Of a stretch of 57,483 bases of DNA, positions 1 through 43,808 are shown one piece after another. The position numbers were made by a program, and so were the translations under genes. Source of the DNA: Candidatus Woesearchaeota archaeon (GTDB lineage Archaea; Nanobdellota; Nanobdellia; SCGC-AAA011-G17; GW2011-AR20). The notes under the pieces were generated by a model. The model ran no database searches. It was given only the letters and a program-made list of their open reading frames with translations, and was not told the DNA's origin. Location: NCBI GenBank assembly GCA_964419925.1, contig CAYQPR010000003.1, forward strand, positions 1 through 57,483, read 5' to 3'. Position 1 is the stretch's first letter, and each line of letters begins with the position of its first letter.

Positions 1-3
1 CTT

Positions 4-6761: not shown

Positions 6762-6779
6762 TTCAAAAATATAGACATT

Positions 6780-11608: not shown

Positions 11609-11609
11609 A

Positions 11610-25336: not shown

Positions 25337-25348
25337 TTTCTTGTTATT

Positions 25349-26077: not shown

Positions 26078-26091
26078 TTTATTGATAATAA

Positions 26092-26111
26092 TTTATAAAG
26101 CTATTTATAAA
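26092..26111. promoter_or_regulatory. Twin TTTATAAA boxes in a divergent promoter region
   Basis: TTTATAAA at 26092-26099 and 26104-26111 in the 56-nt spacer between starts 26077 (-) and 26134 (+). Each box lies 23-34 nt from the start on the far side. Confidence 0.45.
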
Positions 26112-26133
26112 TTTTTTTAATCTTCTTGATTAA

Positions 26134-26586: not shown

Positions 26587-26601
26587 TATTCCTTTTATAT
26601 C

Positions 26602-27591: not shown

Positions 27592-27592
27592 T

Positions 27593-28837: not shown

Positions 28838-28838
28838 T

Positions 28839-29630
28839 TTAAATTCTGACCTCTATTCCATTTTCTTTCATTAATTTTTTAGCATTTATTGCGCTTATTT
28901 CTGTGAAATTAAAAATATTTCCTGCAGCCACAGCGGATGCTTTTCCTTTTTTAATTCCATCAATAAAATCTTCAAATTTTCCAACGCCACCGCAAGCTAT
29001 AACCGGAATATTTACAGATTCGGAAACAATTTTAATTAAATCTAAATCGTAACCTTGTCCTGTTCCATCTTTATCGATGGAGTTTAAAAAGATTTCTCCT
29101 GCTCCAAGAGATTCTACTTTTTTTGCCCATTCAACAGGATCAATATTTGTAGGAATTTTTCCAAATTCTTTGTAAACTTCATACTTTCCTTTATCATTTA
29201 TTTTTACATCAATAGAAACAACTATGCATTGACTACCAAAAATCTTAGAAGCTTCGGTTATAAAACTTGGATTTTCAATTGCAATTGTATTAATTGTTAT
29301 TTTATCTGCCCCCCTTTTTAATCTTTCTCTAATATCTTGGATTGTTCTTATTTTTCCCCCAAATGTTAAAGGAATAAAACATTTCTTAGAAACTTCAGAA
29401 ATAATATCTAGGATATTATCTTTAATTTTAATTTTTGTATCATATCTTCCAAGATTATAATTATCCTCTCTGCTAATATCAAGGTATATCAACTCGTCTA
29501 CTTTCCAGTCATTATATCTTTCTAATTGATGGATTGGGTTGCCTAGGGCATTATGATAATCAAACTTTTCGCTTCTAACCAACATCCCGTTCATCAAAAA
29601 TAAACAAGTAATTAATCTTTTTTTTAGCAT
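28839..29630 (-). CDS. HisF-like cyclase subunit (WbuZ/AglZ-like)
   Basis: 263 aa, (beta/alpha)8 HisF family. DELIYLDISR, ...VIACGGVGKFEDF. Confidence 0.85.
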   Translation of the reverse strand: MLKKRLITCLFLMNGMLVRSEKFDYHNALGNPIHQLERYNDWKVDELIYLDISREDNYNLGRYDTKIKIKDNILDIISEVSKKCFIPLTFGGKIRTIQDIRERLKRGADKITINTIAIENPSFITEASKIFGSQCIVVSIDVKINDKGKYEVYKEFGKIPTNIDPVEWAKKVESLGAGEIFLNSIDKDGTGQGYDLDLIKIVSESVNIPVIACGGVGKFEDFIDGIKKGKASAVAAGNIFNFTEISAINAKKLMKENGIEVRI

Positions 29631-29631
29631 T

Positions 29632-30243
29632 TTAATTCTCTATAAAATTTTTTAATAATTGTAAACCGGCCATTTGGCTCTTTTCTGGATGAAACTGTGT
29701 TCCAGAGATATTATCTTTTTGTATAATTGCCGTAAATTCTTCACCATAATCAAAAGTCCCAACAACAACATCTTCTTCTGGAGTAAAATAATAACTATGA
29801 ACAAAATAAAAAACTTCTGATTTATTCAAATTCTTAAATAAGCAACAATCTTTTTTAAAATATACTTCATTCCAGCCAATATGAGGTATTCTCAAATCTT
29901 TAACTTCTAACTTCTTAACCTTCCCTTTAACAAAACCCAAACCTTTAGTTAATCCGCCCTCATCACCTTCCTCTGCAACTAATTGCATTCCCAGACAAAG
30001 TCCTAAAAAATTTTTTTTTCTTTCCAAAACCTGTTTCTTTAATACATTTATCAAGTTTAAATCAACAAGATTTTTCATGCCATCAGCAAAAGCTCCAACA
30101 CCCGGTAAAATTATGTAGTCTGCAGATTCAATATCCTCAATTTTATTTGAAATTATTGATTTATACCCAAGATATTCTAGAGCATTAGCTACAGAAGCTA
30201 AATTACCCATATTGTAATCAATTATAACAATATTTTTTGGCAT
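29632..30243 (-). CDS. HisH-like glutamine amidotransferase subunit (WbuY/AglY-like)
   Basis: 203 aa. Class I GATase triad context GLCLGMQL and GTQFHPEKS. Confidence 0.9.
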   Translation of the reverse strand: MPKNIVIIDYNMGNLASVANALEYLGYKSIISNKIEDIESADYIILPGVGAFADGMKNLVDLNLINVLKKQVLERKKNFLGLCLGMQLVAEEGDEGGLTKGLGFVKGKVKKLEVKDLRIPHIGWNEVYFKKDCCLFKNLNKSEVFYFVHSYYFTPEEDVVVGTFDYGEEFTAIIQKDNISGTQFHPEKSQMAGLQLLKNFIEN

Positions 30244-30267: not shown

Positions 30268-32058
30268 TTATATCTTGTTATTATTTTTTTCCAAGAGAAT
30301 ATCCGAAATTCTTTTGTATGCTTTTCCATCGTGCAAGGCATAATCATTAAAATCTTTTGAATAATTATCAACTAATTTTTTTTTGTTCTTAAATGATTTT
30401 AATATCATTTCTTTTAATTTACCTTTATTATTCAAACCAAGACACATACCTTTATCTATAAATGGATCTGAGTTTGGTTTATTGAAAAAATTTAAGATAA
30501 GAATCGGTTTTTTGAAAAACATCGCTTCTAAATTAACAGTAGATCCGGCACTCATTATCAAGTCTGACTGTTCCAATAAAGAATTTAACTGAAAGTTTTT
30601 ATCCAAAATGATAATATTTTTAACATTTTCATCCTCTAAGATTTTTTTAGGTAAATTAACATGAGAGTCCGATGGATGCGGTTTTACAATTAATATAAAT
30701 TCATTCATTTTATTTATTGTACTAAAAACGGTTCTATAAAGCTCTGTGTGCTCTTTATTGGAGAGAAAATATTTTGGGTAATCCCTTTCCCCTTCCTTGT
30801 TTGTTGGCGCAATAAAAAGAATGATCTTTTTATCTATAGGAATATTGAATTCTTTTCTTATATTAATCTTTTCTCGGTTATAGTAATTGTCGAATTTTGG
30901 AGATCCGGTTATAATAAGATTTTCTTTTCTTAATCCTTGTTTAATAAACCATCGCTTAGATTCTTTTCCCCATACAAACATTTTATCGGTCAGCATCTTA
31001 AATTTTTTATTCTCAACTAAAAAAAGATTATCACTTAAGGTTGTATAACCATGTTCTATAAGATAAGAGCTTTTTTTATTCTGCTTTAACACTTTGATGA
31101 TTATTTGCTCTAGGGGGAGTATATCGTTTGTTGCCACGACAGCATTTATATGTGGTTCTATACTATAAGAGGCATCTATCCACCTTACAAGTATCTTAAA
31201 ATAAACATCAAATAAATAATCCAAACTATCTAAAAAAATATTATAGAAAGAATATCCTTTATATTCTATATTTTTAATAGTTTCATAAAAATTAATTTTA
31301 GAAAACTTAATTGAGTTATATTTTGGTTTATTCCAAAACGTCAAATAATAATCTTGGTCTGAGTTAAAAAAAGATAAACCTGGAACTGTACCACATCGTA
31401 AAATTTTAGCCTTGCCTTTAAGATATCTTAAAATAGATAGGTAAGCATTTTTGCCACCAATAAATAAAATATTCTTTTTATTGTTTTTTGATAAGGTTAT
31501 TTTAAGATAAACGTTTTGAAATAAACCTAAAACATTAATTAGACTATTTTTGATTTTAAAATTTGATAATTTATCCTTCTTATTTATTATGTTAACCTCA
31601 ATTGGAATTTTATTAACAGAACATATTTCTTTAAGAACAGATAAGAATAATTCTGAGTTATCCAAAAAAATAGATCCTTTTTTATTTTGGTGATAGGTTA
31701 TATATATTTTTTCTGGATGTTTATTTTTTACAATATAATTTAAGATATCAACATATTTAACAAGTGTTACGAAATAAAAAGACAAATAATTTTTTATCAA
31801 TGAAGAAAGATCAACGTTTCTATAAATAAATTTATTTTTAAAATTGTAATAAAATTTTTCTAAAAGAATTTCTGATCTGTTTTCTACATTTTTTAATAGC
31901 TTAATTGGATAAAATTCTTCTATGTTATGTTTCTCTATCTTTTCTAAAGGAAAATTTAGAAAATCTTTTGGTGGATAGTCTAATAAAATAATATTATTTG
32001 TATTAAAATCTTTTAATTTTCTGAATTCTTCAAAATCTAAAAAAATTAATTTTTCCAT
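30268..32058 (-). CDS. Large uncharacterised protein with a C-terminal GT-B/TagF- or KpsS-like domain (candidate nonulosonate or phospho-sugar transferase)
   Basis: 596 aa. C-terminal half has ITGSPKFDNYY...ILFIAPT...VKPHPSD...SAGSTVNLEAMFFKKPILIL, reminiscent of CDP-glycerol glycerophosphotransferase/capsule-synthesis folds. The N-terminal half is unrecognised. Confidence 0.3.
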   Translation of the reverse strand: MEKLIFLDFEEFRKLKDFNTNNIILLDYPPKDFLNFPLEKIEKHNIEEFYPIKLLKNVENRSEILLEKFYYNFKNKFIYRNVDLSSLIKNYLSFYFVTLVKYVDILNYIVKNKHPEKIYITYHQNKKGSIFLDNSELFLSVLKEICSVNKIPIEVNIINKKDKLSNFKIKNSLINVLGLFQNVYLKITLSKNNKKNILFIGGKNAYLSILRYLKGKAKILRCGTVPGLSFFNSDQDYYLTFWNKPKYNSIKFSKINFYETIKNIEYKGYSFYNIFLDSLDYLFDVYFKILVRWIDASYSIEPHINAVVATNDILPLEQIIIKVLKQNKKSSYLIEHGYTTLSDNLFLVENKKFKMLTDKMFVWGKESKRWFIKQGLRKENLIITGSPKFDNYYNREKINIRKEFNIPIDKKIILFIAPTNKEGERDYPKYFLSNKEHTELYRTVFSTINKMNEFILIVKPHPSDSHVNLPKKILEDENVKNIIILDKNFQLNSLLEQSDLIMSAGSTVNLEAMFFKKPILILNFFNKPNSDPFIDKGMCLGLNNKGKLKEMILKSFKNKKKLVDNYSKDFNDYALHDGKAYKRISDILLEKNNNKI

Positions 32059-33593: not shown

Positions 33594-33684
33594 AAAATGC
33601 CCTTATTAAAAGTGTATTTAAATATTACTTATAGATAAGATACTCATAGATTAATTTTTAAATATTCCTATATTAATACAGAAT

Positions 33685-34740
33685 ATGAGGCCAGAAGAAT
33701 TTTATCAGGAATTAAAGAAAAATGGATTTGGTCCATTTACAGGTGTAGCAGATTCTTCATTTGGTGGTTTCTTTAATTACTTAGAAGAATTAAATGAATA
33801 TACTCCTGCTGCTAATGAGGGGTTAGCTTTAGCAATGGCTACTGGTTCTTATCTATCGGGAAAAAAACCAGTTGTTTTATTACAGAATGCGGGTATTGGT
33901 AATTTAATTAATCCCCAAACCTCTTTAAATGATTTATATAAAATAAAATCTTTATTATTAATTGGTTGGAGAGGTAATCCGAGTAAACCAAAAGATGCTC
34001 CCGAGCATTGGTTAATGGGAGAAAAAACTTTAGAGTTTTTGAAATTAGCAAACATAGAAACAAAAGTTCTAGAATCTTTGGATGATATAAAATGGGCAAA
34101 TGATAAGTTGAAAGAAAATAGTACGGTTGCGTTAATAATAAACTCGGGATTAATAGAAGAATACCACAAAAAATTTAATAACGATTATCCGATGTCTAGA
34201 TATGAAGCAGTGGATATTATTTCTAAGTATACTAAGGGAATGAAAAGATTTTCTACTACTGCAATGATATCGAGAGAATTGTATGAGTTAGATGATTCAG
34301 ATAAAAATTTTTATATAATTGGTTCTATGGGGCACATTGGAGCAATTGGACTGGGTTATTCTTTAGAAAATAAAAATGATAAAATAATAGTTTTAGATGG
34401 GGATGGCGCTTTATTAATGCATTTGGGAATATTATCAACAATTGGGAATGTTAAACCTAAAAATTTCTTACATGTTTGTTTAGATAATGAAAGTTATTCT
34501 TCTACAGGGTTGCAATCAACAACTTCTAAAACAACAAATTTAGAAAAAATAGCTTTAGATTGTGGTTATAACAATACAATTAAGGTAATAAACAAAGATG
34601 AACTGGAAGAAAATCTAAAAAGATTTATTCAAATAGAAGGTCCAAATTTTATTTTAGTTAAAGTTAACTCTGGAAATAAAGATAAAATAAAGAGAATCGA
34701 AATAAGTCCGGAAGAAATTACTAGAAGGTTTATGAAATGA
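33685..34740 (+). CDS. ppd: Phosphonopyruvate decarboxylase (TPP-dependent, fused alpha/beta)
   Basis: 351 aa. TPP motif GDGALLMHLGILSTIGNVKPKNFLHVCLDNESY. Directly linked to a PEP mutase gene. Confidence 0.8.
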   Translation: MRPEEFYQELKKNGFGPFTGVADSSFGGFFNYLEELNEYTPAANEGLALAMATGSYLSGKKPVVLLQNAGIGNLINPQTSLNDLYKIKSLLLIGWRGNPSKPKDAPEHWLMGEKTLEFLKLANIETKVLESLDDIKWANDKLKENSTVALIINSGLIEEYHKKFNNDYPMSRYEAVDIISKYTKGMKRFSTTAMISRELYELDDSDKNFYIIGSMGHIGAIGLGYSLENKNDKIIVLDGDGALLMHLGILSTIGNVKPKNFLHVCLDNESYSSTGLQSTTSKTTNLEKIALDCGYNNTIKVINKDELEENLKRFIQIEGPNFILVKVNSGNKDKIKRIEISPEEITRRFMK

Positions 34741-35882
34741 AGTACTATATGCCCACAGAGATCTATTTTGGTAACGGGAATCTAAATAAAACACAAGAGA
34801 TCGTTAAAGAAAATAATCCAGAAAATATTTTATTGATAACTGGAAAAAATTTTGCTAAAAAAGCAGGTTTACAAGAAAAATTATCTTCCAACTTAAAAGA
34901 TTATCAAGTGAATATCTATGATAAAGTTAATCCAATTCCGAAATTGGAGGATGTTGAAGATGCATTAAGGTTTGCAAAACAACAAAATATAGATTTGATT
35001 ATAGGTTTGGGGGGGGGGAGTGTTCTTGACATATCAAAAATAACTTCTATAATGTTGAGAAACGAAGGAAATGTTTTAGATTATGTTAATAAAAAGATAA
35101 AGAATAGAGGTATAACACTTATTGCAATTCCTACAACATCAGGAACCGGATCTGAAGTAAGTCCATTTGCTGCTTTTTATTATAATAAGAAAAAACAATC
35201 TTTCGGAGGTATAAAGGACCATCTAGTTTATCCTCACTATGCAGTTGTAGATCCAGAATTGACATTAACTATGCCAAATGAAGTTGTAGCCTCTTCTGGT
35301 TTAGACGCATTATCACAAGCACTTGAATCTTATTGGAGCATTAATTCAAATGATTTATCAGATATTCATGCGATTCAATCCATAAAATTAATCTTAACTA
35401 ATTTAGAGAATAGTTATCTTTCTAATGATCTTAAATATAAATATAATATGAGTAAGGCTAGTTTAGAGGCCGGATTAGCATTTAGTCAGACTGCAACAAC
35501 AGCGCCCCATTCAGTATCATATCCAATGACTGCCCATTTTAATTTAAGTCATGGTTTTGCATGTGCTTTAACATTACCAGAATTTTTACGGTATAATTAT
35601 GAAATAAATAAAGATAATTGTATAGATGAAAGGGGGCATATTTTTGTCAGAGAAAAATTAGATAATTTATTGAATGAATTAGATATGAAATCTTTATTGA
35701 ATCTTAGTGACTCAATTAAAAATTTGATGATAAAAGTTAATGCACCTTTAACGTTAAGTAAAGTGGGTATAGAAAATTATAATGTTATTTTGGAAGAGGG
35801 ATTTACTCCAGAAAGGATGAGTAATAATCCAAGGTTAGTTACTAAAGAAGATTTAGCTAGAATATTGTATAGAATAAGATAG
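34737..35882 (+). CDS. Iron-containing (group III) alcohol dehydrogenase, predicted phosphonoacetaldehyde reductase
   Basis: 381 aa. GLGGGSVLD nucleotide-binding motif and AIPTTSGTGSE. 4-nt overlap with ppd. Confidence 0.75.
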   Translation: MKYYMPTEIYFGNGNLNKTQEIVKENNPENILLITGKNFAKKAGLQEKLSSNLKDYQVNIYDKVNPIPKLEDVEDALRFAKQQNIDLIIGLGGGSVLDISKITSIMLRNEGNVLDYVNKKIKNRGITLIAIPTTSGTGSEVSPFAAFYYNKKKQSFGGIKDHLVYPHYAVVDPELTLTMPNEVVASSGLDALSQALESYWSINSNDLSDIHAIQSIKLILTNLENSYLSNDLKYKYNMSKASLEAGLAFSQTATTAPHSVSYPMTAHFNLSHGFACALTLPEFLRYNYEINKDNCIDERGHIFVREKLDNLLNELDMKSLLNLSDSIKNLMIKVNAPLTLSKVGIENYNVILEEGFTPERMSNNPRLVTKEDLARILYRIR

Positions 35883-35946
35883 ATTATCAAAACAGTTATA
35901 AAACTTTGTTTATTTATATTGAATAAATAACGAGTAAGAGGTTAAT

Positions 35947-37239
35947 ATGAAAAAGGTATATGTTGGTTTAAGTGCAGATTTGTTACATCCCGGCCATCTT
36001 AATGTGATAGATGAGGCTAGAAAACTTGGAGAGGTGACTATAGGTTTACTAACTGATAAAGCAATTGCTAGTTATAAAAGACTACCTTTTTTATCATATG
36101 AACAAAGAAAGATTGTTGTAGAAAATATTAAAGGTGTTAAAGAAGTTATTCCTCAAGAAACTTTAGATTATACAGATAATTTAAGAAAAGTTATGCCAGA
36201 TTATGTTGTACATGGTGATGATTGGAAAACAGGCATTCAACAAAAAACTAGGGAAAAGGTTATTGAAGTATTAAAGGAATGGGGTGGAGAATTAGTAGAG
36301 CCTCGATACACAAAAAATATTTCTTCAACACAACTCAATAATGCTTTAAGGGAATTAGGATATACCCCTGAAATTAGGATGAAGATATTAAGAAGATTGA
36401 TTAACACAAAATCAATTGTAAGAATTTTAGAAGCACATAATGGGTTAACTGGATTAATTGTTGAGAATACAAAAGTTGAAAAAGATAATAAAATTAAAGA
36501 ATTTGATGGTATATGGGTTAGTAGTTTAACTGATTCTTTATCAAAAGGCAAACCCGATAATGAAGTTGTTGATTTTACATCTAGATTAAGCACAATAAAT
36601 CATATTTTAGAAGTAACTACTAAACCAATCATCGTTGATGGAGATACCGGAGGAAATGCGGAACATTTTGTTTCTATTGTAAAAACTCTTGAAAGACTCG
36701 GTGTTTCAGCGGTTATAATAGAGGATAAAGTAGGATTAAAAAAAAATTCTTTATTTGGAACTGATGTTGAACAGATACAAGATACAATAGAAAATTTTTC
36801 AGCTAAGATTAGAGCAGGAAAAAACGTACAAATGACCGATGATTTTATGATAATCGCAAGAATTGAAAGCTTAATCTTGAAAAAAGGAGTATGGGAGGCT
36901 ATTATCAGAGCAAAAGCTTATATCGAAGCGGGTGCCGATGCAATAATGATTCATAGTAAGGAAAAGAGTTTCGATGAGATAAAAGAATTTTGTAAAGAGT
37001 ACTCTAAATTTGAAAATAAAATTCCATTAGTTGCCGTTCCGTCAACATATTCTCATGTTACTGAAAAAGAGCTCGTAGATAATGGAATTAATGTGGTAAT
37101 TTATGCTAATCATTTAATCAGGGCAGCTTATCCTGCTATGATAAAAACAGCGGAATCTATTCTATCAAATGAAAGAGCTTATGAAGCTGAAAATAACTTG
37201 TTAGGTATTAAAGAATTAATAAGTTTAATCGAGAAATAA
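35947..37239 (+). CDS. Bifunctional cytidylyltransferase / phosphoenolpyruvate mutase (Fom1-like domain architecture)
   Basis: 430 aa. Residues 1-~130 are TagD-like, with HxGH (HPGH, aa 14-17). The remainder is isocitrate-lyase/PepM fold with the PepM-diagnostic EDKX5NS motif ([10 protein letters not shown], nt 36721-36750). Confidence 0.9.
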
Positions 37240-37315
37240 TCATTTCTAAGATTGGGTTTTTAAAAAGTCTCAAAACATAAATAATCTTATAAACTAAATT
37301 AATAATAAATTTTTT

Positions 37316-38272
37316 ATGAAATTATCAAAAATAGTTGGATTATTATTGGGTGTTGTAATTGTTTTTTTAATAGTTAAAAGTATAGGAGGTAATAATTTAA
37401 TAAATGTTTTAAAAAATTTTAATTTTCTGTATTTACCATTAATTATAGTCGCATTGATATTAGATTATGTTTTGGGTGGATTAAACACATGGATTATTGT
37501 TAGAGGCTTCAAAAAAATTTCTTTATTTTATCTCATCAAAGCTACATTTATAACCCTAGTTTATGCTGCATTTTTACCTGGAAAACTCGCTGACTTGTTA
37601 ATTATTCCTTTTCTAAAAAGAAAAAAATTAAGTTTAAGTCAGGCCACAATAAGTATAGGTTTAGATAAAATAATTAGTTTATTAATAAGAGTTTTATTTG
37701 GTTTATTTGGTGCGATATTTATATTAAAGAAATTTAACTTTTTATTTATAGGCATACCGTTAATGGCTTTGTTAATAACTCTTTTTATAATCTTGTTTAC
37801 ACATTCTAAAAAAATTAAGGAAATTATAAAACATAAATTATTGAAAAAATATTCATTTTTATTTAAAGGCTTTTCTAAAAATTTAAAGTATTACATTAAA
37901 AAGAACAAAAAATATTTGTTTTATAATGTAATTATAACAATAATAAAAACATTTTTAGAAGCACTACTCTTCTTTTTTTTGTTCTTATCGCTCGGGCAAG
38001 AAACAAATATAATCACACTCTTTTTTATCTTTTCTTTATTATCTATAATAATGCTACTGACATTCCCAATAGGTATATCTGGAATAGGGGTTAGAGAGGG
38101 AATTGGCATACTTGTTTTTGGTTTAGTTGGTGTAAATTCGGCGGTAGTCTTTAATTCGTTTATATTAAGATTAATTTTAATTTATTTAATAAATTTAGTT
38201 ACGATAATCATTCATAGAGAAGAGTTAAATGTATTGAAAGAAACTGCTCTGATTAAAAAATTTAATAGTTAG
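37316..38272 (+). CDS. Polytopic membrane protein (lysyl-PG-synthase TM-region/flippase-like, UPF0104-type)
   Basis: 318 aa, about 8 TM helices. GISGIGVREG motif near the C-terminus is typical of this family. Confidence 0.55.
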   Translation: MKLSKIVGLLLGVVIVFLIVKSIGGNNLINVLKNFNFLYLPLIIVALILDYVLGGLNTWIIVRGFKKISLFYLIKATFITLVYAAFLPGKLADLLIIPFLKRKKLSLSQATISIGLDKIISLLIRVLFGLFGAIFILKKFNFLFIGIPLMALLITLFIILFTHSKKIKEIIKHKLLKKYSFLFKGFSKNLKYYIKKNKKYLFYNVIITIIKTFLEALLFFFLFLSLGQETNIITLFFIFSLLSIIMLLTFPIGISGIGVREGIGILVFGLVGVNSAVVFNSFILRLILIYLINLVTIIIHREELNVLKETALIKKFNS

Positions 38273-38919
38273 GATTTTTTACCTAATTTGTAATTGCTTT
38301 GAATTTGTTTTATCCAACCAAAGGTTCCGAATATAGCAAAAAACCATAGATATAATTCAATCATATTTAGAATAGCAAAGATGGATAAACCAACTAGAGT
38401 AAGTAATCCGTAGGGTATTTCAAGTCCATTTATCTTAGGTAATTCAGTATGACCCTTAGAAAAATTCCAAAAAGGCTTAAATGATAAGATAAAGGCTATC
38501 ATTGACATATTAAAGATGGCGACAGATCCAATTATTAGTATCAATGGTTCTCCAGAAATTTGGTAAGCACCTATTGTCGCCCCTAAAAATAAAATGTATT
38601 TGAAAATTTTATTGGCAACACAATCATACCATTCTCCAAATTTAGTTCCTAACTTTTTATATCGGGCTACTTTTCCATCAACCATGTCGGATATTAAAAC
38701 AACCTGTGTTAATATTGCACCTATAATTAAATATTTCAATTCTCCCAATGCAAAAAAAAATCCTGCGACAATAGATATTAAAATCCCTATGGTTGTTATT
38801 TGATTTGGAGTTATACTAGTTTTAACAAGGACTCTAACCAACGATTCTGCTAATGGCCTATAGATTATAGTAATTAAACTTTCTCTACCACTTCTCATTT
38901 TCACATTATCCTTTTTCAT
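38269..38919 (-). CDS. CDP-alcohol phosphotransferase family membrane enzyme
   Basis: Start moved from 39048 to ATG 38919 (MKKDNVKM...). TTTATATA at 38941-38948 lies 22-29 nt upstream, and the longer ORF would overlap the divergent gene. Signature D-x2-DG-x2-AR-x8-G-x3-D present as DMVDGKVARYKKLGTKFGEWYD, but the final D is N (CVAN). Confidence 0.8.
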   Translation of the reverse strand: MKKDNVKMRSGRESLITIIYRPLAESLVRVLVKTSITPNQITTIGILISIVAGFFFALGELKYLIIGAILTQVVLISDMVDGKVARYKKLGTKFGEWYDCVANKIFKYILFLGATIGAYQISGEPLILIIGSVAIFNMSMIAFILSFKPFWNFSKGHTELPKINGLEIPYGLLTLVGLSIFAILNMIELYLWFFAIFGTFGWIKQIQSNYKLGKKS

Positions 38920-38979
38920 AAAGATTTCCAACAAAAAAGCTTTATATAGTTTTGTTTTTTTATAGTATATATAAATAAT

Positions 38980-39993
38980 ATGACAATCAAAATAGGGGTT
39001 ATTGGGTGCGGGTATTGGGGTCCTAACATAATTCGAAATTTTAGTCAAACAAATAATGTTGAGATATCTTATATTTGTGATATTGATGAAAACAAGATTA
39101 ATTCCATTAAAAAATTTTATCCGAGCATTAAAGCAGTAAATGATTATAAAGAGATATTAAAAGATAATGATGTTGATGCAGTTGCAATTGTTCTTCCGGT
39201 TGGAAAACACTATAACATTGCTAAAGAGGCTTTATTAAATAATAAACATGTACTAATAGAAAAGCCAATTACATCCAGTGTAGAAGAAGCAGAAAATTTA
39301 ATAAAAATTGCAAAGGAAAAAAATAAGATTATTATGGTAGACCATACTTTTGAATACCATGAAGGAATAAATAAAATAAAAGAAATAATTAATAATAAAG
39401 ATTTAGGTGAAATATATTATATGAGGGCAGAATGGCTAAGTCTGGGATTATTACAACCGGATGTTAATGTTGCGTGGGATTTGGCTACCCATATGATATC
39501 AATTATAAATTATGTTTTTAATTTAGATGCTTTAAGTGTTAGTGCAAATTTTGGAGCATATATTAGGAAAGAAATTCCAGAAGTAGCGAATATAAACATT
39601 AAATTTCCAAATGATATCAATTGTTATTTGATGGTCAGCTGGCTTGAACCAAAAAAAACTAGAAAAATAACTATTGTCGGAAGTAAAAAATTATTGGTTT
39701 ATGATCTAACCAATGATGAAGAACAAGTAAAAATATATGATAAAGGAGTTGATTTATCAAAAGAAATAAAGGATATTGAACAATTAAAGATAAATTATAG
39801 ATATGGGGATATTTATTCTCCAAATATAAAAACAATTGAACCCCTTAAAACAATGTGTTTACACTTTACCGAATCAATTATAAATAATGAAAAACCCAGG
39901 AGTGATGGTGAATCAGGTCTTAAAGTTATAAAAATGTTAGAAGCAATTAATGAATCATTAAAAAATAATGGAGCAGAAGTTTTTTTAAAATGA
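38980..39993 (+). CDS. Gfo/Idh/MocA NDP-sugar 3-dehydrogenase (WlbA/WbpB-like)
   Basis: 337 aa. IGVIGCGYWGPNIIRNF Rossmann motif and EKP motif (HVLIEKPIT). Confidence 0.85.
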   Translation: MTIKIGVIGCGYWGPNIIRNFSQTNNVEISYICDIDENKINSIKKFYPSIKAVNDYKEILKDNDVDAVAIVLPVGKHYNIAKEALLNNKHVLIEKPITSSVEEAENLIKIAKEKNKIIMVDHTFEYHEGINKIKEIINNKDLGEIYYMRAEWLSLGLLQPDVNVAWDLATHMISIINYVFNLDALSVSANFGAYIRKEIPEVANINIKFPNDINCYLMVSWLEPKKTRKITIVGSKKLLVYDLTNDEEQVKIYDKGVDLSKEIKDIEQLKINYRYGDIYSPNIKTIEPLKTMCLHFTESIINNEKPRSDGESGLKVIKMLEAINESLKNNGAEVFLK

Positions 39994-40460
39994 TTAAAGA
40001 AGATGTTAAATTAGGAAAAGAAATAAAGATTTTTCAGGCTAATTTAGTTAATCTTTATGGCTGTGAAATCGGAGACAATACGAAGATAGGTAGTTTTGTT
40101 GAGATTCAGAAAAATGCTAAAATAGGAAAAAACTGTAAAATCTCTTCTCACACATTTGTATGCGAAGGGGTTACAATCGAGGATGATGTATTTATAGGGC
40201 ATAATGTTTCTTTTATAAATGATAAATACCCAAGATCAACTGCAAAAGGTAAACTACAAACCGAATCTGATTGGGTTTGTGTTCCAACATTAGTAAAAAA
40301 AGGAGCCTCAATAGGAACAAGCTCGACAATTCTTTGTGGGTTAACAATAGGTGAAAATGCAATAGTTGGATCCGGGAGTGTTGTAACGAGGGATGTTCCA
40401 CCAAATACAATAGTTGCTGGAGTTCCTGCAAAAATAATAAGGAGAATTGAAAATGAATAA
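39990..40460 (+). CDS. Left-handed beta-helix sugar 3-N-acetyltransferase (WlbB/WbpD/QdtC-like)
   Basis: 156 aa. Hexapeptide repeats IGSFVEIQKNAKIGKNCKISSHTFVCEGVTIEDDVFIGHNVSF. 4-nt overlap with the upstream gene. Confidence 0.85.
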   Translation: MIKEDVKLGKEIKIFQANLVNLYGCEIGDNTKIGSFVEIQKNAKIGKNCKISSHTFVCEGVTIEDDVFIGHNVSFINDKYPRSTAKGKLQTESDWVCVPTLVKKGASIGTSSTILCGLTIGENAIVGSGSVVTRDVPPNTIVAGVPAKIIRRIENE

Positions 40461-41556
40461 AATTCCAATGGTGAATTTAAACGCACAGTATTTATCAATT
40501 AAAGATGAGATAGACAAAGCAATTGAAAATGTCATAAGTAGTTCTGAGTTCATATTGGGAAAACATGTTTTAGAGTTTGAAAAAAATTTTGCAAAGTTGT
40601 GTGATAAAAAATATGCTGTCGGTGTTAATTCGGGTACTACAGCGCTTAATTTGGCTTTAATGGCTTATGGGATTAAACAAGGTGATGAGGTCATTACAGC
40701 TTCAAATACATTTATTGCAACAGCTTCTGCCATAGCCCATACTGGAGCTAAACCTGTTTTTGTTGATATCGATGAAAAAACATACAACATTGACCCAAAA
40801 AAAATAGAAGAAAAAATTACAAGTAAAACAAAAGCAATAATTCCAGTTCATTTATATGGGCAACCTGTAGATATTGATGAAATAACTGAGATCGCAAATA
40901 AACATAACCTAATAATTATTGAAGATGCTTGTCAAGCGCATAATTCAGAATATAAACATAAAAAAATACCCCTATCTGAAACAGGCTGTTTTAGTTTTTA
41001 TCCCGGAAAAAATTTAGGTGCCTATGGTGAGGGAGGAATGGTTGTTACAGATAACGAAGGTGTTGCAAATAAAATTAGATTGTTAAGAGATCATGGGCAA
41101 GTAGAAAAATATGTTCATGATATAGTTGGATTTAATAATAGAATGGAAGGGATTCAAGGTGCAATATTAAATGCAAAATTAAAACATTTAGATGAATGGA
41201 CAGAAAAAAGAAGAAGTAAGGCTAGAATATATAATAAATTATTATCGGGGGTTGTAGAGGCTCCTTTTGAAAAAATAGATAGAAAACATGTTTATCATCT
41301 GTATGTAACTAGAGTAAAAAATAGAGAAGATTTGATGAGTTTTCTTAAAGATAAAGGAATATCTACTGGACTTCATTATCCAATTCCAATTCATTTGCAA
41401 AAAGCATTTTCATATTTAAATTATGATAAAAAAAGTTTTCCAATAACTGAGAATGTGGTAAATGAAATTTTATCTCTTCCAATATACCCCGAACTAAAAG
41501 AAGAAGAAATAGAATATGTTTGTGAAAATATAAAAAAATTTTATAATAAAACCTAA
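40447..41556 (+). CDS. DegT/DnrJ/EryC1 PLP-dependent sugar aminotransferase (WlbC/WbpE-like)
   Basis: 369 aa. Schiff-base Lys in SFYPGKNLGAYGEGG. Gene order dehydrogenase-acetyltransferase-aminotransferase matches wlbABC. Confidence 0.9.
   Translation: MKMNKIPMVNLNAQYLSIKDEIDKAIENVISSSEFILGKHVLEFEKNFAKLCDKKYAVGVNSGTTALNLALMAYGIKQGDEVITASNTFIATASAIAHTGAKPVFVDIDEKTYNIDPKKIEEKITSKTKAIIPVHLYGQPVDIDEITEIANKHNLIIIEDACQAHNSEYKHKKIPLSETGCFSFYPGKNLGAYGEGGMVVTDNEGVANKIRLLRDHGQVEKYVHDIVGFNNRMEGIQGAILNAKLKHLDEWTEKRRSKARIYNKLLSGVVEAPFEKIDRKHVYHLYVTRVKNREDLMSFLKDKGISTGLHYPIPIHLQKAFSYLNYDKKSFPITENVVNEILSLPIYPELKEEEIEYVCENIKKFYNKT
40742..40833 (+). repeat. 92-nt segment identical to 44077-44168 (inside a DegT paralog)
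   Basis: Read directly: ctggagctaaacctgtttttgttgatatcgatgaaaaaacatacaacattgacccaaaaaaaatagaagaaaaaattacaagtaaaacaaaa occurs in both genes, which are otherwise strongly diverged. Confidence 0.85.
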
Positions 41557-42116
41557 CTTTTAATTAACTCGACTAAATCATTATTTTTCAATCCAAAATA
41601 AGTTGCCTCTTCTTTATCCAAATGGAAATGAGATTTATGCGAATCTCCTGATCTAATAATTACATCTTCGATTAATAATCTTTTGTTAAAATAAATTTTA
41701 ACTTTATCTCCATTTTTTAATCCAAATTCACTTGCTTCACTAATATGAAGGTGCACATGCATTTTAGCAATAATAACCCCTTTTTTTAATTTTATTCCCC
41801 CATTATTTCCTTGAACAATTATTCCCGGAGAATTTTCTAAATTACCAGAAACTAAAACGGGTGCTTTAATTCCTAAAATAGATTGCTCGCTCCTCATAAT
41901 TTCAACTTGTGTCTCATTTCTTAAAGGACCAACAACCCTTACATTACAAATAACACCATATTTACCTACTAAGTTTACTGTTTCTTTTGCAGCAAATTGT
42001 CCTGGTTGTCTTATTTCACGTAAAACTTCCAAATCATTTCTTCCAAACAATTTAACACAGTCTTCTTTACATAAATGAATATGGTGATTTGATACTCCTA
42101 CAGGAACTGTGTTCAT
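41553..42116 (-). CDS. pduL: Phosphate acyltransferase PduL (phosphate propanoyl/acetyltransferase)
   Basis: Start set at ATG 42116 (MNTVPVGVSNHHIHL...). Two PduL repeats (VPVGVSNHHIHL and IIAKMHVHLHISEASEFGL) plus RQPGQFAAKETV. The 79-aa upstream extension in the ORF track is low-complexity and overlaps the divergent gene. Confidence 0.85.
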   Translation of the reverse strand: MNTVPVGVSNHHIHLCKEDCVKLFGRNDLEVLREIRQPGQFAAKETVNLVGKYGVICNVRVVGPLRNETQVEIMRSEQSILGIKAPVLVSGNLENSPGIIVQGNNGGIKLKKGVIIAKMHVHLHISEASEFGLKNGDKVKIYFNKRLLIEDVIIRSGDSHKSHFHLDKEEATYFGLKNNDLVELIKS

Positions 42117-42189
42117 TCTTGAATTTAAGTAAGATAATTTTAAAAACCTTGGGTTTATTAGTCTAGTTAATAGATTTTGTTTGATTGAT

Positions 42190-43152
42190 ATGAAAATTAA
42201 AAACTCGGTGATCCTTGTAACAGGTGGTGCTGGTAATATAGGTAGCCATATAGTAGATATGTGTATTAAAGAAGGAGCAAAAAAAGTTATAATTATTGAT
42301 AATTTTACCAGGGGGGTTATGGCTAATTTAGAATGGGCAAAAAAAAATGGCAATATCGAGATTATAGAGGGAGATATTCGAGATTTTGAATTATTAAATA
42401 AATGTTTTAAAGATGTTGATTATGTTTTTCATGAAGCAGCAATAAGAATAACACAATGTGCAAAAGAACCAAGATTAGCCCATGAAGTTTTGATTGATGG
42501 AACATTTAATGTTTTAGAAGCTTGTGTTAAAAATAATATTAAAAAATTAGTATTTGCATCATCTGCATCGGTTTATGGGGATGCAAGTTATTTACCTATG
42601 GATGAAAATCATCCATTTAATAATAAAACATATTACGGTGCAGGTAAAATTGCTAATGAGCAAATGGTTAGGTCATTTAGAGAGATGTATGGACTTAAAC
42701 ATATTGGTTTAAGATATTTTAATGTTTATGGTCCTAGAATGGATATCTATGGATATTATACCGAGGTAATGATAAAATGGTTAGATAAAATAGATAAAAA
42801 TGAATCTCCAGTAATTTTCGGTGATGGAGAACAAGCTATGGATTTTGTTTATGTCGAAGATATTGCAATGGCAAATATCCTTGCTTTAGAAAGTGATCTC
42901 GAAGAAGGAATTTATAACGTTGGAACCGGTGTAATTTCTTCTTTAAATGATTTAGTAAAAATCATGTTAGAGTTAACAAATCCTAACTTAAAACCAGTAT
43001 ACAAAGAACCTGAAAAATTATTAATTGTATCAAAAAGAAGAGCCGACATAAATAAAGCTAAAAAAGATTTAGGTTTTGAAAGTAAAATAAATCTTAAAGA
43101 GGGATTAAAAAAATTAATTGAGTGGAGAAAAAATCAACATGAAAGAAACTAA
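42190..43152 (+). CDS. NDP-sugar epimerase/dehydratase (extended SDR)
   Basis: ATG 42190 (MKIKNSVILVTGGAGNIGSH). Catalytic YGAGK, and RYFNVYGPR. Confidence 0.85.
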   Translation: MKIKNSVILVTGGAGNIGSHIVDMCIKEGAKKVIIIDNFTRGVMANLEWAKKNGNIEIIEGDIRDFELLNKCFKDVDYVFHEAAIRITQCAKEPRLAHEVLIDGTFNVLEACVKNNIKKLVFASSASVYGDASYLPMDENHPFNNKTYYGAGKIANEQMVRSFREMYGLKHIGLRYFNVYGPRMDIYGYYTEVMIKWLDKIDKNESPVIFGDGEQAMDFVYVEDIAMANILALESDLEEGIYNVGTGVISSLNDLVKIMLELTNPNLKPVYKEPEKLLIVSKRRADINKAKKDLGFESKINLKEGLKKLIEWRKNQHERN

Positions 43153-43804
43153 AAAAATAATTATTCTAGGAACGGCTGGAAACTCTGTTGATATTCTTGA
43201 TACAATAAATGATATTAATCTGGTAGAAAAAATATATGAATGTCTCGGTTTTCTTGATGATAATAAAGATAATTTAGGAAAAGAGGTATTGGGGGTTAAA
43301 GTTCTAGGATCGCTTAGTTCAGCAAATAATTTTGATAAGAGAGTATATTTTGTTAACGGCATTGGAAGCCCATCTAATTTTTTAAAAAAAGAGGAAATAA
43401 TTAGAAAAACCGGAATACCTTTAGAAAGGTTTGAAACGATTATACACCCAACGGCAAGTATTTCTCGCACTTCAAAAATTGGAAAGGGTGTGGTTATATT
43501 TCAAAATGTCACATTAACATCAAATGTTTTAATTGGAAACCATGTTATCATATTACCAAATACGATTATTAGCCATGACGATATAATTGGAGATTATACT
43601 TGTATTACTGGCGGGGTTTGTATTTCAGGTAATGTAAAAATAGGAAAATTATGTTATTTAGGTACAAATAGTACGATTATAGGGAATACTAATGTAGGAG
43701 ATTGTTGTCTTATCGGGATGGGGAGTGTTATCTTAAAAGATGTTCCAGATAATAGCGTATTTGTAGGGAATCCGGGAAAATTTCTCAAGCATATTAGAGG
43801 ATAA
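43139..43804 (+). CDS. NeuD/PglD-family amino-sugar N-acetyltransferase
   Basis: ATG 43139 (MKETKKIIILGTAGNSVDILDTI...). N-terminal Rossmann-like domain ending ...GFLDDNKDNLGKEVLGVKVLG, then hexapeptide repeats. Confidence 0.8.
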   Translation: MKETKKIIILGTAGNSVDILDTINDINLVEKIYECLGFLDDNKDNLGKEVLGVKVLGSLSSANNFDKRVYFVNGIGSPSNFLKKEEIIRKTGIPLERFETIIHPTASISRTSKIGKGVVIFQNVTLTSNVLIGNHVIILPNTIISHDDIIGDYTCITGGVCISGNVKIGKLCYLGTNSTIIGNTNVGDCCLIGMGSVILKDVPDNSVFVGNPGKFLKHIRG

Positions 43805-43808
43805 TAAA

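Follow-up and report, generated by a model that had tools for sequence, protein, structure and literature searches.

A putative module for decorating the cell surface with 2-hydroxyethylphosphonate in a glycan island of a reduced-genome archaeon

Why would an archaeon carry relatives of the fosfomycin genes fom1, fom2 and fomC among its glycan genes, and where would the phosphonate go? The original prediction was a route from PEP over phosphonopyruvate, phosphonoacetaldehyde and 2-hydroxyethylphosphonate (HEP) to CMP-HEP, which would supply a head group to a lipid or glycan. On balance, we consider it probable that the genes form a module for tailoring the cell surface, in which HEP is made, activated with CMP and moved onto a membrane-bound acceptor, the last step being suggested by gene linkage.

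The module and its setting

The window (the whole stretch of 57,483 nucleotides analysed) is filled with glycan-biosynthesis genes, in keeping with the placement of the module inside a glycan locus. The host is a reduced-genome DPANN archaeon, Woesearchaeota-like, the genome reduction being deduced from its best match, the 829-kb chromosome of archaeon GW2011_AR20. This closest named genome (complete and already public as CP010426.1) retains the module in synteny. The module has five genes, of which three are co-directional in the order Ppd-ADH-PepM, followed by an LPG_synthase_TM gene on the same strand and a convergent CDP-alcohol phosphotransferase (CDP-OH) gene:

33594-33684, no strand: divergent intergenic region, 91 nt, AT-rich, between the Wzx (-) and Ppd (+) genes; presumed promoter region of the module, as read from the sequence
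33685-34740, + strand: phosphonopyruvate decarboxylase (Ppd, Fom2-like), TPP-dependent, 351 aa, TIGR03297
34737-35882, + strand: Fe-dependent alcohol dehydrogenase (ADH), putative phosphonoacetaldehyde reductase (PhpC/FomC-like), 381 aa
35947-37239, + strand: bifunctional cytidylyltransferase (CyTase) and PEP mutase (PepM), Fom1-type fusion, 430 aa; CyTase ~1-136, PepM ~147-430
37316-38272, + strand: polytopic LPG_synthase_TM (MprF-type, "flippase-like") membrane protein, 318 aa, PF03706
38269-38919, - strand: CDP-alcohol phosphotransferase-family membrane enzyme, 216 aa, PF01066

The last ORF was listed as 38269-39048 (-), and its start was re-set to the ATG at 38919 on the basis of homologs. 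HMM E-values range from 1e-98 to 1e-119, which excludes chance, and the sequence-level statements of the original prediction were all confirmed in position.

Predicted route from PEP to CMP-HEP

Strong homology suggests that the first three steps would be the conversion of PEP to phosphonopyruvate by PepM, its decarboxylation to phosphonoacetaldehyde by Ppd and the reduction of the aldehyde to HEP by the Fe-ADH. The fusion protein has a CTP_transf_like domain (residues 10-130) and a PEP_mutase domain (148-406). Its identification as a PepM stands, since the latter scores 397.1 bits against the PEP mutase model TIGR02320 (cut-off 319.55) and carries the ten-residue EDKX5NS motif at exactly nt 36721-36750; it also matches Mytilus PepM (150 bits). 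Models for carboxyPEP mutase (50.6), methylisocitrate lyase (101.7) and phosphonopyruvate hydrolase (159.3) score far lower.

The decarboxylase passes the equivalog cut-off of TIGR03297 (329.5 vs 312.5 bits), has as its top PDB match 9IZ3 (putative Ppd alpha/beta subunits) and carries the predicted TPP motif GDG...LDN, beginning at residue 239. The models for sulfopyruvate decarboxylase (ComDE), a candidate for the same gene, miss their cut-offs (169.6 < 221.5 and 59.7 < 147.95). The dehydrogenase gene overlaps the Ppd gene by the expected 4 nt (ATGA), and its product scores 152 bits against the Fe-ADH Pfam model; the top NCBIfam match, to the phosphonate-associated model TIGR03405, scores 228.8 bits and so misses the cut-off of 423.7. 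Ppd is present in 76 and Fe-ADH in 65 of 83 related loci, showing that the PepM/Ppd/ADH trio is conserved.

Homology and context suggest that the N-terminal domain of the fusion would then form CMP-HEP, an analogue of a CDP-alcohol with a P-C bond in place of the beta P-O-C linkage. This domain has the HxGH-type motif HPGH at residue 14, as predicted, and is 67.7% identical (204 bits) to the solved CyTase domain of Fom1 (PDB 5X3D), an enzyme that, according to Cho 2017 (cited in PMC6697681), makes CMP-HEP. AEP-type loci, however, hold CyTase domains equally similar to that of Fom1, and the identity is therefore no proof of HEP specificity. The predicted logic from PEP to CMP-HEP is thus borne out by the two equivalogs, the CyTase identity, the Fe-ADH and the absence of an AEP transaminase (AEPT) from the scanned ORFs of the window. 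The dehydrogenase score and the failure of the CyTase identity to separate HEP from AEP are observations that run against the reading favoured here.

Proposed transfer to a membrane-bound acceptor

Based on gene linkage, the CDP-OH enzyme would take the hydroxyethylphosphonyl group of CMP-HEP, release CMP and attach the group to a membrane-associated alcohol, which might be a core lipid or lipid-linked sugar. The LPG_synthase_TM protein may carry the product to the outer face, to remain there as a phosphonolipid or to pass via a GT-C (PMT_2) enzyme to a surface glycan or glycoprotein. In Kennedy-type transfer, CDP-choline or CDP-ethanolamine and, in ciliates, CMP-AEP react with diacylglycerol through CDP-alcohol phosphotransferases. 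By analogy of mechanism, a membrane enzyme of the CDP-OH family would form a lipid head group from a soluble CMP-P(-X) donor.

The flippase-like protein and the convergent phosphotransferase foreseen downstream of the trio score 110 bits (PF03706; TIGR00374, 49 bits) and 51 bits (PF01066), respectively, and the former has about 8-10 hydrophobic segments by hydropathy. Aligned with AF2299 and Mycobacterium tuberculosis PIP synthase, the CDP-OH enzyme shows the motif D78xxD81G82xxA85R86...G95xxxD99xxxN103, in which Asn replaces the fourth Asp, a substitution conserved in the subfamily; Kennedy-type enzymes, in contrast, keep all four aspartates. The equivalent residue in M. tuberculosis PgsA1 is D93, which binds Mg-2 and is presumed to act as the catalytic base (PMC6506517).

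Of 84 related loci, 20 have a CDP-OH-family gene no more than 6 kb from PepM (24 such genes in 830 kb of flank), and several of these genes directly adjoin PepM in unrelated phyla. The CDP-OH and LPG_synthase_TM genes are immediate neighbours in almost every locus with flank available, the latter being a fixed partner in AR20, L084-L092, L094-L099 and L103-L106. Within the close sub-clade (at least 72% identity), six contexts (the window, AR20, L087, the L085 group, L090 and L091) have the pair about 1 kb or less from PepM in three different gene arrangements. In this sub-clade the pair always stands beside a cytidylyltransferase, which is either the PepM fusion or a separate enzyme with a PhnCDE phosphonate importer at its side. 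L088 (77% identity) and L092 (65%) have a stand-alone HxGH cytidylyltransferase in the place of PepM, followed in L088 by PhnD (278.8 > 261.1), PhnC (281.5 > 266.1) and PhnE (296.2 > 216.7), all above equivalog cut-offs. Such relatives would supply the same pair by importing the phosphonate. More distant members of about 50% identity (L084, L086, L096, L098, L099 and L100) have no PepM in the available flanks, and hence the pair is not intrinsically phosphonate-specific.

Three other island genes may bear on the fate of the product:

30268-32058, - strand: 596-aa GT-B protein, TagB/F-like or BFO_1060-like, rival user of the CMP donor; NCBIfam BFO_1060 76 bits, Capsule_synth 24 bits
32091-33593, - strand: Wzx/MOP-family flippase, divergent neighbour, link to the module uncertain; Polysacc_synt 86.8 bits, with MatE and MurJ matches
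47302-49065, + strand: PMT_2 (GT-C) polytopic glycosyltransferase, possible downstream extracytoplasmic transferase; PF13231 40 bits, 12 hydrophobic segments

Families that normally use CDP-alcohols (CDP-OH, TagB/F-like and LicD) are among the commonest neighbours of the cassette, and no CDP-alcohol-like donor other than CMP-HEP has its synthesis visibly encoded in the window. The donor might instead serve the 596-aa protein, encoded two genes upstream of the module, or another island enzyme, which would place HEP on a glycan hydroxyl in the manner of teichoic acids; the pair would then be an independent lipid-head-group unit using another CDP-alcohol. We regard this as unlikely, if deserving of attention. 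In its favour, the 596-aa protein has homologs with PF04464 and COG1887 (JGI names one "CDP-glycerol glycerophosphotransferase"), the cassette has TagB/F-like proteins at its flanks in 20 of 82 loci, related 608-aa proteins join the pair in the PepM-less L084, L086 and L099, and the presumed catalytic Asp is missing from the CDP-OH enzyme. However, the window protein itself (79% identical to its AR20 ortholog) does not reach significance against PF04464, scoring better with BFO_1060 and Capsule_synth, and its position beside nonulosonic-acid genes (NeuB, CMP-NulO synthetase and WbuX) suggests a CMP-sugar-acid transferase. Nor does such a role explain why the pair stays so close to PepM through rearrangements, or the PhnCDE salvage locus, and no gene of the window would provide the pair with a different CDP-alcohol.

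Alternatively, HEP could be the acceptor, its hydroxyl being joined to CDP-archaeol or CDP-DAG to give phosphatidyl- or archaetidyl-hydroxyethylphosphonate, just as PIP and PGP synthases use inositol-phosphate and glycerol-phosphate. HEP is, like those acceptors, an alcohol with an anionic phosphorus group; archaetidylinositol-phosphate and PIP synthases are the top NCBIfam matches of the CDP-OH enzyme (weak, 55-57 bits), and PIP synthases are among the structural neighbours of its AF2 model (pLDDT 78.7). We give this little credence, because these scores are all far under the equivalog cut-offs, the best match in both sequence and fold is AF2299 (TM 0.76), which is no PIP synthase, and neither the conserved CyTase domain nor the stand-alone CyTase of the salvage loci would have a role. 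Moreover, DPANN archaea generally have, to our knowledge, no genes for de novo lipid activation.

The comparative context thus supports the original assignment of CMP-HEP to the CDP-OH enzyme as donor, while the transfer itself is plausible but unproven, given Asn103, the distant pairs lacking PepM and the TagB/F-like competitor. As to the later steps, PMT_2 homologs occur near the pair in AR20, L084-L086, L088, L089, L091, L098 and L099; in L007, a homolog lies close to a more distant CDP-OH gene. The Wzx gene is kept next to Ppd in AR20 (82% identity), and members of its family, named via the Wzx of the window within the cluster, border the cassette in 16 of 82 loci.

Tailoring genes

As first noted, none of the scanned ORFs of the window (Pfam/NCBIfam, almost every ORF from 120 aa upward) encodes a radical-SAM/B12 enzyme (Fom3), a cupin epoxidase (HppE), HepD/MpnS or a class-V aminotransferase (AEPT), and 21 kb of syntenic AR20 sequence likewise holds no such gene. 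Outside the scan lie four ORFs in 40447-44921 (by sequence reading two DegT-type, an epimerase and a hexapeptide acetyltransferase), a GT1-like ORF (44916-46109), a 122-aa ORF (56963-57331) and some overlapping opposite-strand ORFs; otherwise every ORF above 400 aa is accounted for. It is very improbable that genes elsewhere, or a sugar-type aminotransferase of the island, turn phosphonoacetaldehyde or HEP into AEP, methylphosphonate, hydroxypropylphosphonate or a diffusible antibiotic-like molecule: although the window shows 57 kb of the genome and includes a Pfam-confirmed DegT-type aminotransferase besides the two just mentioned, and although related loci have B12-radical-SAM genes within 10 kb of the cassette (14 of 84, several directly adjoining) or AEPT beside near-identical fusions (7 loci), here Ppd is followed by Fe-ADH rather than AEPT, the glycan island places the module next to membrane transferase and flippase genes, and a genome of ~0.8 Mb is an unlikely antibiotic producer.

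Relation to known phosphonate systems

A nucleotide-activated route ending in HEP in a reduced-genome archaeon had been proposed as new. This novelty was overstated: the fusion has more than 8000 relatives across archaea and bacteria (the best-scoring at ~70% identity or more), mostly accompanied by Ppd and Fe-ADH in glycan loci, and many genomes of DPANN archaea and bacteria, AR20 among them, carry this cassette. PF01467-PepM fusions make up 23.6% of RefSeq PepM (Ppm) proteins (Rice 2019, PMC6697681), and both HEP-branch neighbourhoods (8.5%) and CDP-OH-linked clusters, the latter predicted to make phosphonolipids, are already catalogued (PMC8942020). The module is thus of a widespread, catalogued kind.

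The fosfomycin pathway of Streptomyces wedmorensis (Fom1, Fom2 and FomC) shares the four chemical steps, the domain architecture and the EDKX5NS and HxGH motifs. It differs in having Fom3 (B12-rSAM) and Fom4 (HppE), absent from the scanned ORFs here, and in that CMP-HEP is a transient intermediate there and presumably the end-donor for transfer in the module, whose genes run Ppd-ADH-PepM within an archaeal glycan island. HEP-branch (PhpC-type) clusters, e.g., those for the HEP-exopolysaccharide of Stackebrandtia nassauensis and the methylphosphonate of Nitrosopumilus maritimus, an archaeal precedent, likewise use a Ppm/Ppd/Fe-ADH core to provide HEP for a cell-surface polymer (PMC8942020). N. 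maritimus adds MpnS, which was not found among the scanned ORFs of the window; no CDP-OH/LPG_synthase_TM pair is reported for these clusters (PMC8942020), and the host of the module is a DPANN archaeon.

Phosphonyl-tailoring (Pnt) clusters, whose cytidylyltransferases are fused to Ppm or encoded next to it (Rice et al. 2019, PMC6697681), also activate a phosphonate with a nucleotide for cell-surface decoration in glycan or lipid loci; the characterised PntC, however, is a PF12804 protein specific for AEP with LicD-type transferases downstream, whereas the module has a PF01467 domain, the HEP branch and CDP-OH and LPG_synthase_TM partners. The "Burkholderiales_CDP-OH" / Group 1 clusters (Li & Horsman 2022, PMC8942020) combine Ppm, Ppd, a Ppm-fused cytidylyltransferase and a CDP-alcohol phosphatidyltransferase-type lipid gene and, like the module, are known from predicted products. 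Theirs would be 1-hydroxy-AEP, and they encode AEPT, a second PntC and an alpha-KG oxygenase, none of which the module has; it has instead Fe-ADH, Asn at the fourth motif position and an MprF-type partner. In Borg extrachromosomal elements of Methanoperedens, too, a PepM-cytidylyltransferase fusion occurs with a short CDP-alcohol phosphotransferase among archaeal surface-glycan genes, but there the CDP-OH active site is reported to be exactly conserved, and an AEP-transaminase fusion makes the cluster AEP-type (bioRxiv 10.1101/2024.11.05.622173). Finally, PhnCDE and the cytidylyltransferase of L088 mirror, by analogy, uptake and activation by LicB/LicC in bacterial Lic choline salvage, where the transferase is LicD and not a CDP-OH enzyme.

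Biosynthetic genes of the module

The ORF listing places all five genes of the original prediction where it had put them:

33685-34740, + strand: phosphonopyruvate decarboxylase (Ppd)
34737-35882, + strand: Fe-alcohol dehydrogenase (Fe-ADH)
35947-37239, + strand: fusion of a cytidylyltransferase (CyTase) and a PEP mutase (PepM) domain
37316-38272, + strand: LPG_synthase_TM membrane protein (LPG_TM)
38269-38919, - strand: CDP-alcohol phosphotransferase (CDP-OH)

The possibility that the PepM domain belongs with the isocitrate lyases or carboxyPEP mutases does not hold up. The fusion scores as a PEP mutase (TIGR02320, 397.1 bits; cut-off 319.55), far above the superfamily paralogs phosphonopyruvate hydrolase (159 bits), methylisocitrate lyase (102 bits) and carboxyPEP mutase (51 bits). 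The predicted EDKX5NS motif is located at residue 259, encoded by exactly nt 36721-36750, and aligns with the Mytilus PepM motif. Ppd, the thermodynamic driver of the PepM reaction, is encoded in the same cluster, two genes upstream on the same strand. It carries the GDG...LDN TPP-binding motif and, in the comparison with ComDE, passes the Ppd equivalog model (NCBIfam TIGR03297, 329.5 bits against a cut-off of 312.5) while failing both sulfopyruvate-decarboxylase models (ComE-like, 169.6 bits, below 221.5; ComD-like, 59.7 bits, below 147.95). The Fe-ADH gene overlaps the end of the Ppd gene, sharing ATGA. Its top NCBIfam model is the phosphonate-associated TIGR03405, yet the score falls below the cut-off (228.8 vs 423.7 bits). 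The assignment as a phosphonoacetaldehyde reductase (PhpC/FomC/PsrA-type) is therefore based on context: the translational coupling to Ppd, and the occurrence of Fe-ADH in 65 of 83 related loci, where Ppd is found in 76 (tblastn and blastp counts).

The N-terminus of the fusion matches the PF01467 cytidylyltransferase domain (54.8 bits), with HPGH at residue 14. Its match to the solved CyTase domain of Fom1 (PDB 5X3D) reaches 204 bits, and 90 of the 133 residues (67.7%) are the same; TagD and ethanolamine-phosphate cytidylyltransferase reach only 45 and 54 bits, respectively. The predicted kinship to Fom1 and PepM is borne out for both domains. CMP-5'-(2-hydroxyethyl)phosphonate (CMP-HEP) is cited in PMC6697681 as the product of the Fom1 CyTase (Cho 2017). 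However, identity to Fom1 was rejected as evidence of specificity for 2-hydroxyethylphosphonate (HEP). A genuine 2-aminoethylphosphonate transaminase (AEPT; representative, 365.8 bits to TIGR03301, cut-off 360.8) is present in seven related loci, and the CyTase domains of these loci are equally similar (57-63% to Fom1 and 65-70% to the window domain). The specificity for HEP is thus derived from the context, in which Fe-ADH occurs and AEPT does not, rather than from the sequence.

Collectively, strong homology suggests that PepM would convert PEP to phosphonopyruvate, which Ppd would decarboxylate to phosphonoacetaldehyde for reduction to HEP by the Fe-ADH. On the basis of homology and context, the CyTase domain would then turn HEP into CMP-HEP. 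We regard these four steps, from PEP through CMP-HEP, as highly probable, and this biosynthetic half of the module is routine annotation of a widespread, already catalogued cassette. The window Ppd and ADH are ~36-43% identical to those of other loci vs 63-83% for the fusion, and a separate origin of the two genes was suspected. This idea was dropped, because the other loci, compared pairwise with one another, likewise give low medians for Ppd (49%) and ADH (37%) relative to the fusion (64%); the fusion is simply more conserved.

Closest genome and distribution of the cassette

The closest named relative of the fusion (83% identity) is encoded by archaeon GW2011_AR20 (AR20), which has a complete 829-kb chromosome. 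The whole neighborhood is syntenic in AR20 (WbuX, HisF, HisH, a 596-aa glycosyltransferase [GT], Wzx, Ppd, ADH, PepM, CDP-OH, LPG_TM and PMT_2), and "reduced-genome archaeon" is therefore a fair description. In the NCBI record, the AR20 ortholog of the 596-aa GT (P0161) is named "Ribosomal protein L35", an evident misannotation.

The fusion is not rare: at least 8000 homologs were scored, all with E ≤ 1e-5. The 120 best-scoring of these are 70-83% identical to the window protein and come from Nano-, Woese- and Pacearchaeota and also from Ignavibacteria and Bacteroidota; some fusion homologs carry the JGI label [quoted passage not shown]. A genome scan with the fusion gave 80 loci from many more phyla. 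The usual gene order is PepM-Ppd-ADH (58 of 83 loci), and of these 83 only the window and AR20 have both Ppd and ADH co-directionally upstream of PepM, in the order Ppd-ADH-PepM. Among RefSeq Ppm (PepM) proteins, 59.5% are fused to a nucleotidyltransferase and 23.6% to PF01467, i.e., the Fom1 type (PMC6697681). The HEP-branch accounts for 8.5% of ppm neighborhoods, including the N. maritimus cluster and the Stackebrandtia HEP-exopolysaccharide (PMC8942020). Moreover, a PepM-CyTase fusion has been noted alongside a CDP-alcohol phosphotransferase in a preprint on Borgs (10.1101/2024.11.05.622173). Our literature search found no description of the module in DPANN archaea.

Additional genes accompany the cassette (CyTase-PepM, Ppd and ADH) in relatives. 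Genes for B12-binding radical-SAM proteins are located within 10 kb of it in 14 related loci, mostly DPANN (L005, L007, L009, L017, L019, L023, L025, L026, L028, L046, L054, L056, L062 and L082), and directly beside PepM in L007, L017, L023, L025 and L028. The proximity may point to C-methylation of CMP-HEP by Fom3-like enzymes in these relatives. An assignment as Fom3 was not supported, however, since the proteins are diverse: they are 22-31% identical to the L056 query and the L056 representative matches generic class-B models only. A conserved 256-aa ORF lies directly downstream of PepM in the DPANN relatives L085 (10978-11748), L028 (10077-10859) and L007 (10988-11746), in L085 and L007 between PepM and Ppd. 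It has no Pfam or NCBIfam match and is absent from the window.

The CDP-OH enzyme and its membrane partner

The CDP-OH gene is convergent with the LPG_TM gene and overlaps it by 4 nt; homologs place its start at the ATG at 38919. The protein scores 51.2 bits to PF01066 (gathering score 22) and 57.6 bits to AF2299. Its AF2 model (pLDDT 78.7) is closest to AF2299 (TM 0.76), followed by PIPS and DIPPS, and as modeled the fold is intact. The complete family signature, D1xxD2GxxAR...GxxxD3xxxD4, is not present in the protein, which reads D78xxD81G82xxA85R86...G95xxxD99xxxN103, with the fourth Asp replaced by Asn. AF2299 and Mycobacterium tuberculosis PgsA1 both have Asp at the position aligned to N103; the PgsA1 residue, D93, binds Mg-2 and is presumed to act as the catalytic base (PMC6506517). 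Of 17 members of the DPANN subfamily, 16 have Asn here. In the wider family of short CDP-OH proteins, which counts ~2,400 representatives at E ≤ 1e-10, 149 representatives carry Asp here in ~70% of cases, Asn in 7% and otherwise G, H, S, A, T or E. The conservation of the Asn argues for an enzyme that is functional yet mechanistically deviant, rather than dead, as judged from these alignments. A mechanistic explanation would be needed for the conserved replacement of the presumed catalytic Asp by Asn. The subfamily is small: it has only ~30 close relatives in an index of 5.8 billion proteins and, in the representative library, falls into just one cluster at 50% identity.

The LPG_TM protein matches PF03706 (110.4 vs 33.4 bits) and TIGR00374 (49.1 vs 43.2 bits). 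It is polytopic, with ~8-10 hydrophobic segments, and its "flippase-like" character is predicted from the family; PDB sequence searches with this protein and with the 596-aa GT returned nothing useful. In this small subfamily, CDP-OH immediately adjoins LPG_TM in almost every locus with enough flank, and the two are hereafter referred to as the pair. A well-conserved 220-226-aa methyltransferase accompanies the pair or follows ADH in L084, L085, L090, L096, L098 and L100; the window has no close ortholog of it.

Linkage between the cassette and the pair

A census of ORF families up to 5 kb from the cassette, covering 82 loci, shows TagB/F-like genes (20 loci), CDP-OH genes (18) and two LicD clusters (14 and 8) among the commonest neighbors; CDP-alcohols are the usual substrates of these three enzyme families. 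Of 84 loci, 20 have a CDP-OH-family gene no more than 6 kb from PepM, with 24 such genes in 830 kb of flank. This density is far higher than expected from a few copies per genome, a rough estimate rather than a computed control. In eight loci from DPANN, Planctomycetes, Spirochaetota and Kiritimatiellales (L001, L004, L007, L010, L032, L038, L048 and L074), CDP-OH is directly beside PepM. Within the sub-clade that shares at least 72% identity with the window CDP-OH, the pair is positioned within ~1 kb of CyTase-PepM in six distinct contexts (the window, AR20, L087, L085/L089/L108, L090 and L091). These show three arrangements, PepM>LPG_TM><CDP-OH, PepM><CDP-OH LPG_TM> and CDP-OH><LPG_TM PepM>, which indicates that the linkage between the pair and PepM has survived rearrangement.

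Two loci with the pair, L088 (77% identity) and L092 (65%), are without PepM and instead have a stand-alone HxGH cytidylyltransferase one gene from the pair. L088 (positions 1-7124 of JGI Ga0209541_10030087) carries, in this order, the pair, an HD-motif 226-aa ORF, the HxGH cytidylyltransferase, NTP_transferase, PhnD/PhnC/PhnE and PMT_2. Its PhnD, PhnC and PhnE exceed the equivalog cut-offs (278.8 > 261.1, 281.5 > 266.1 and 296.2 > 216.7, respectively). By analogy with the Lic choline pathway, a locus of the L088 type looks like an import-and-activate version feeding the same pair; a salvage-like version of the module is also seen in L092 and L106. Pair members at ~50% identity have no PepM in the available flanks (L084, L086/L104, L096, L098, L099 and L100) and are often near a 608-aa TagF-like protein and PMT_2. 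The altered motif of the CDP-OH enzyme speaks against the link, and so does the lack of PepM in these deeper relatives; the latter suggests that the pair is a head-group unit of general use whose donor is probably determined by the adjacent cytidylyltransferase.

In this scenario, the CDP-OH-family enzyme would move the hydroxyethylphosphonyl group from CMP-HEP to a membrane-associated alcohol, a step that the gene linkage makes reasonably likely. The LPG_TM protein would then expose the product on the outer face. GT2 and PMT_2 (GT-C) genes directly adjoin the pair in L084, L085 and L091; in the window and AR20 they follow 8-10 kb downstream. This placement would suit a lipid-linked sugar as the acceptor, modified first and then flipped and transferred outside. 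A plain phosphonolipid, formed by Kennedy-type transfer to a core lipid, is an equally good fit. Everything beyond CMP-HEP is drawn from gene context.

A rival user of CMP-HEP is the 596-aa GT-B protein two genes upstream of the module (30268-32058, - strand), whose homologs are annotated as TagB/F-like CDP-glycerol glycerophosphotransferases. The protein itself, however, scores better to BFO_1060 and Capsule_synth, and it adjoins a nonulosonic-acid set:

24239-30243: nonulosonic-acid set, comprising
24239-25336: NeuB
25349-26077: CMP-nonulosonate (CMP-NulO) synthetase
27593-30243: WbuX amidotransferase and HisH/HisF-like partners

This set points to legionaminic or pseudaminic acid in an acetamidino-modified form. 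The adjoining GT may be its transferase, and a role as a CMP-sugar-acid transferase is the more likely one for this protein.

DPANN archaea generally scavenge rather than make membrane lipids. In this context, we tentatively propose that a DPANN CDP-OH clade with Asn at the fourth position, together with an MprF-type flippase, might decorate scavenged lipids, or sugars linked to lipids, with phosphonate (C-P) head groups. The donor would derive from de novo HEP (PepM, Ppd, ADH and CyTase) or from imported phosphonate (PhnCDE and CyTase).

Comparison with known phosphonate pathways

Apart from the module genes, Pfam and NCBIfam scans covered almost every window ORF that reaches 120 aa; outside them were a few ORFs in 40447-46109, which look like sugar-modifying enzymes judged from sequence, a 122-aa ORF (56963-57331) and some overlapping opposite-strand ORFs. 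All ORFs above 400 aa are otherwise accounted for. The scanned ORFs of at least 120 aa gave no Radical_SAM, B12-binding or cupin-epoxidase match, in line with the predicted absence of Fom3 and HppE. They likewise include no HepD/MpnS-like protein and no class-V (AEP) transaminase, again as predicted. Among the window ORFs, no MpnS candidate (HepD-like dioxygenase) was found near PepM, Ppd and ADH; the ORFs without annotation encode surface proteins, a polytopic membrane protein (13814-15244) and, 16 kb away, a soluble protein of 364 aa.

The module would combine the first half of fosfomycin biosynthesis with a head-group transfer of the Kennedy or Pnt type. Since the scanned window ORFs include neither Fom3 (the B12 radical-SAM methyltransferase) nor Fom4/HppE, it does not qualify as a fosfomycin cluster; nor is it a methylphosphonate pathway of the N. 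maritimus type, since no MpnS is encoded in the window. The large "Burkholderiales_CDP-OH" group has already been predicted to make phosphonolipids (PMC8942020). Its seven-gene core includes AEPT, an alpha-KG/Fe(II) oxygenase and two PntC, whereas the scanned ORFs in or beside the window module include no class-V aminotransferase, no oxygenase and one cytidylyltransferase domain only. With AEPT and the oxygenase absent, the module is not of this type.

What is new is the cassette in DPANN archaea joined to the pair of an Asn-variant CDP-OH transferase and an MprF-type flippase, the duality of biosynthesis or import in supplying this pair, and a concrete candidate for a CMP-HEP transferase. We know of no characterized CMP-HEP transferase, and to our knowledge the route by which cells attach CMP-activated phosphonates to their surfaces is still a question for enzymology. 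The module and its relatives point to a specific transferase/flippase pair and offer a natural comparison of biosynthetic and imported supply. If the proposal is true, archaea would have their first phosphonolipid or phosphonoglycolipid pathway, and CMP-HEP its first demonstrated transferase, belonging to a mechanistically deviant CDP-AP subfamily. Phosphonates constitute a sizeable, poorly sourced share of environmental organic phosphorus. Confirmation would mean that ultra-small symbiotic archaea put PEP into phosphatase-resistant surface groups, which would matter for their interaction with hosts, their resistance to phages and enzymes, and the cycling of phosphorus in the subsurface.

The surrounding glycan island

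The whole window (~28% GC; no tRNA or Rfam matches) is one large glycan island. It encodes many epimerases/dehydratases, DegT aminotransferases and GT1, GT2 and GT-C enzymes, as well as NeuB and the CMP-nonulosonate synthetase, WbuX/HisH/HisF, CysD/CysN/TauE and Wzx. Further features are:

8127-12413 region: sulfate-activation set, with CysN-like (9604-10845), TauE (10829-11608) and CysD/PAPS_reduct (11610-12413)
8127-9611: soluble alkaline-phosphatase-superfamily protein (PF01663), adjoining the sulfate-activation set
16753-17847, + strand: 364-aa soluble ORF between NTP_transferase and two epimerase/dehydratase genes
41553-42131, - strand: PduL-like phosphate propanoyltransferase (NF011652, 203 bits vs cut-off 209), inside the glycan island
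50428-50967, - strand: 179-aa SAM-methyltransferase ORF
51141-53102, + strand: 653-aa protein with N- and C-terminal hydrophobic segments and Thr/Ser/Asn-rich repeats
53141-53644, + strand: small anchored protein, directly after the 653-aa protein

The 364-aa ORF has no Pfam, NCBIfam or PDB sequence match. A TTG-started N-terminal extension of the PduL-like ORF (to 42353), which overlaps the next epimerase gene, is probably not real. In the methyltransferase ORF only the C-terminal half of the domain is matched (profile positions 48-95 of 95), and the ORF may be truncated or mis-started. The 653-aa protein, which lacks a Pfam or NCBIfam match, has 30 N-x-S/T sequons vs ~16 expected. We regard it as a probable surface (S-layer-like) glycoprotein and as a candidate for receiving the glycan made by the island. 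Homologs of the PF01663 protein (~30-34% identical) are found within 7 kb of PepM in L009, L017, L023, L028 and L054, and sulfatase-like proteins are encoded beside the cassette in 10 of 82 loci.
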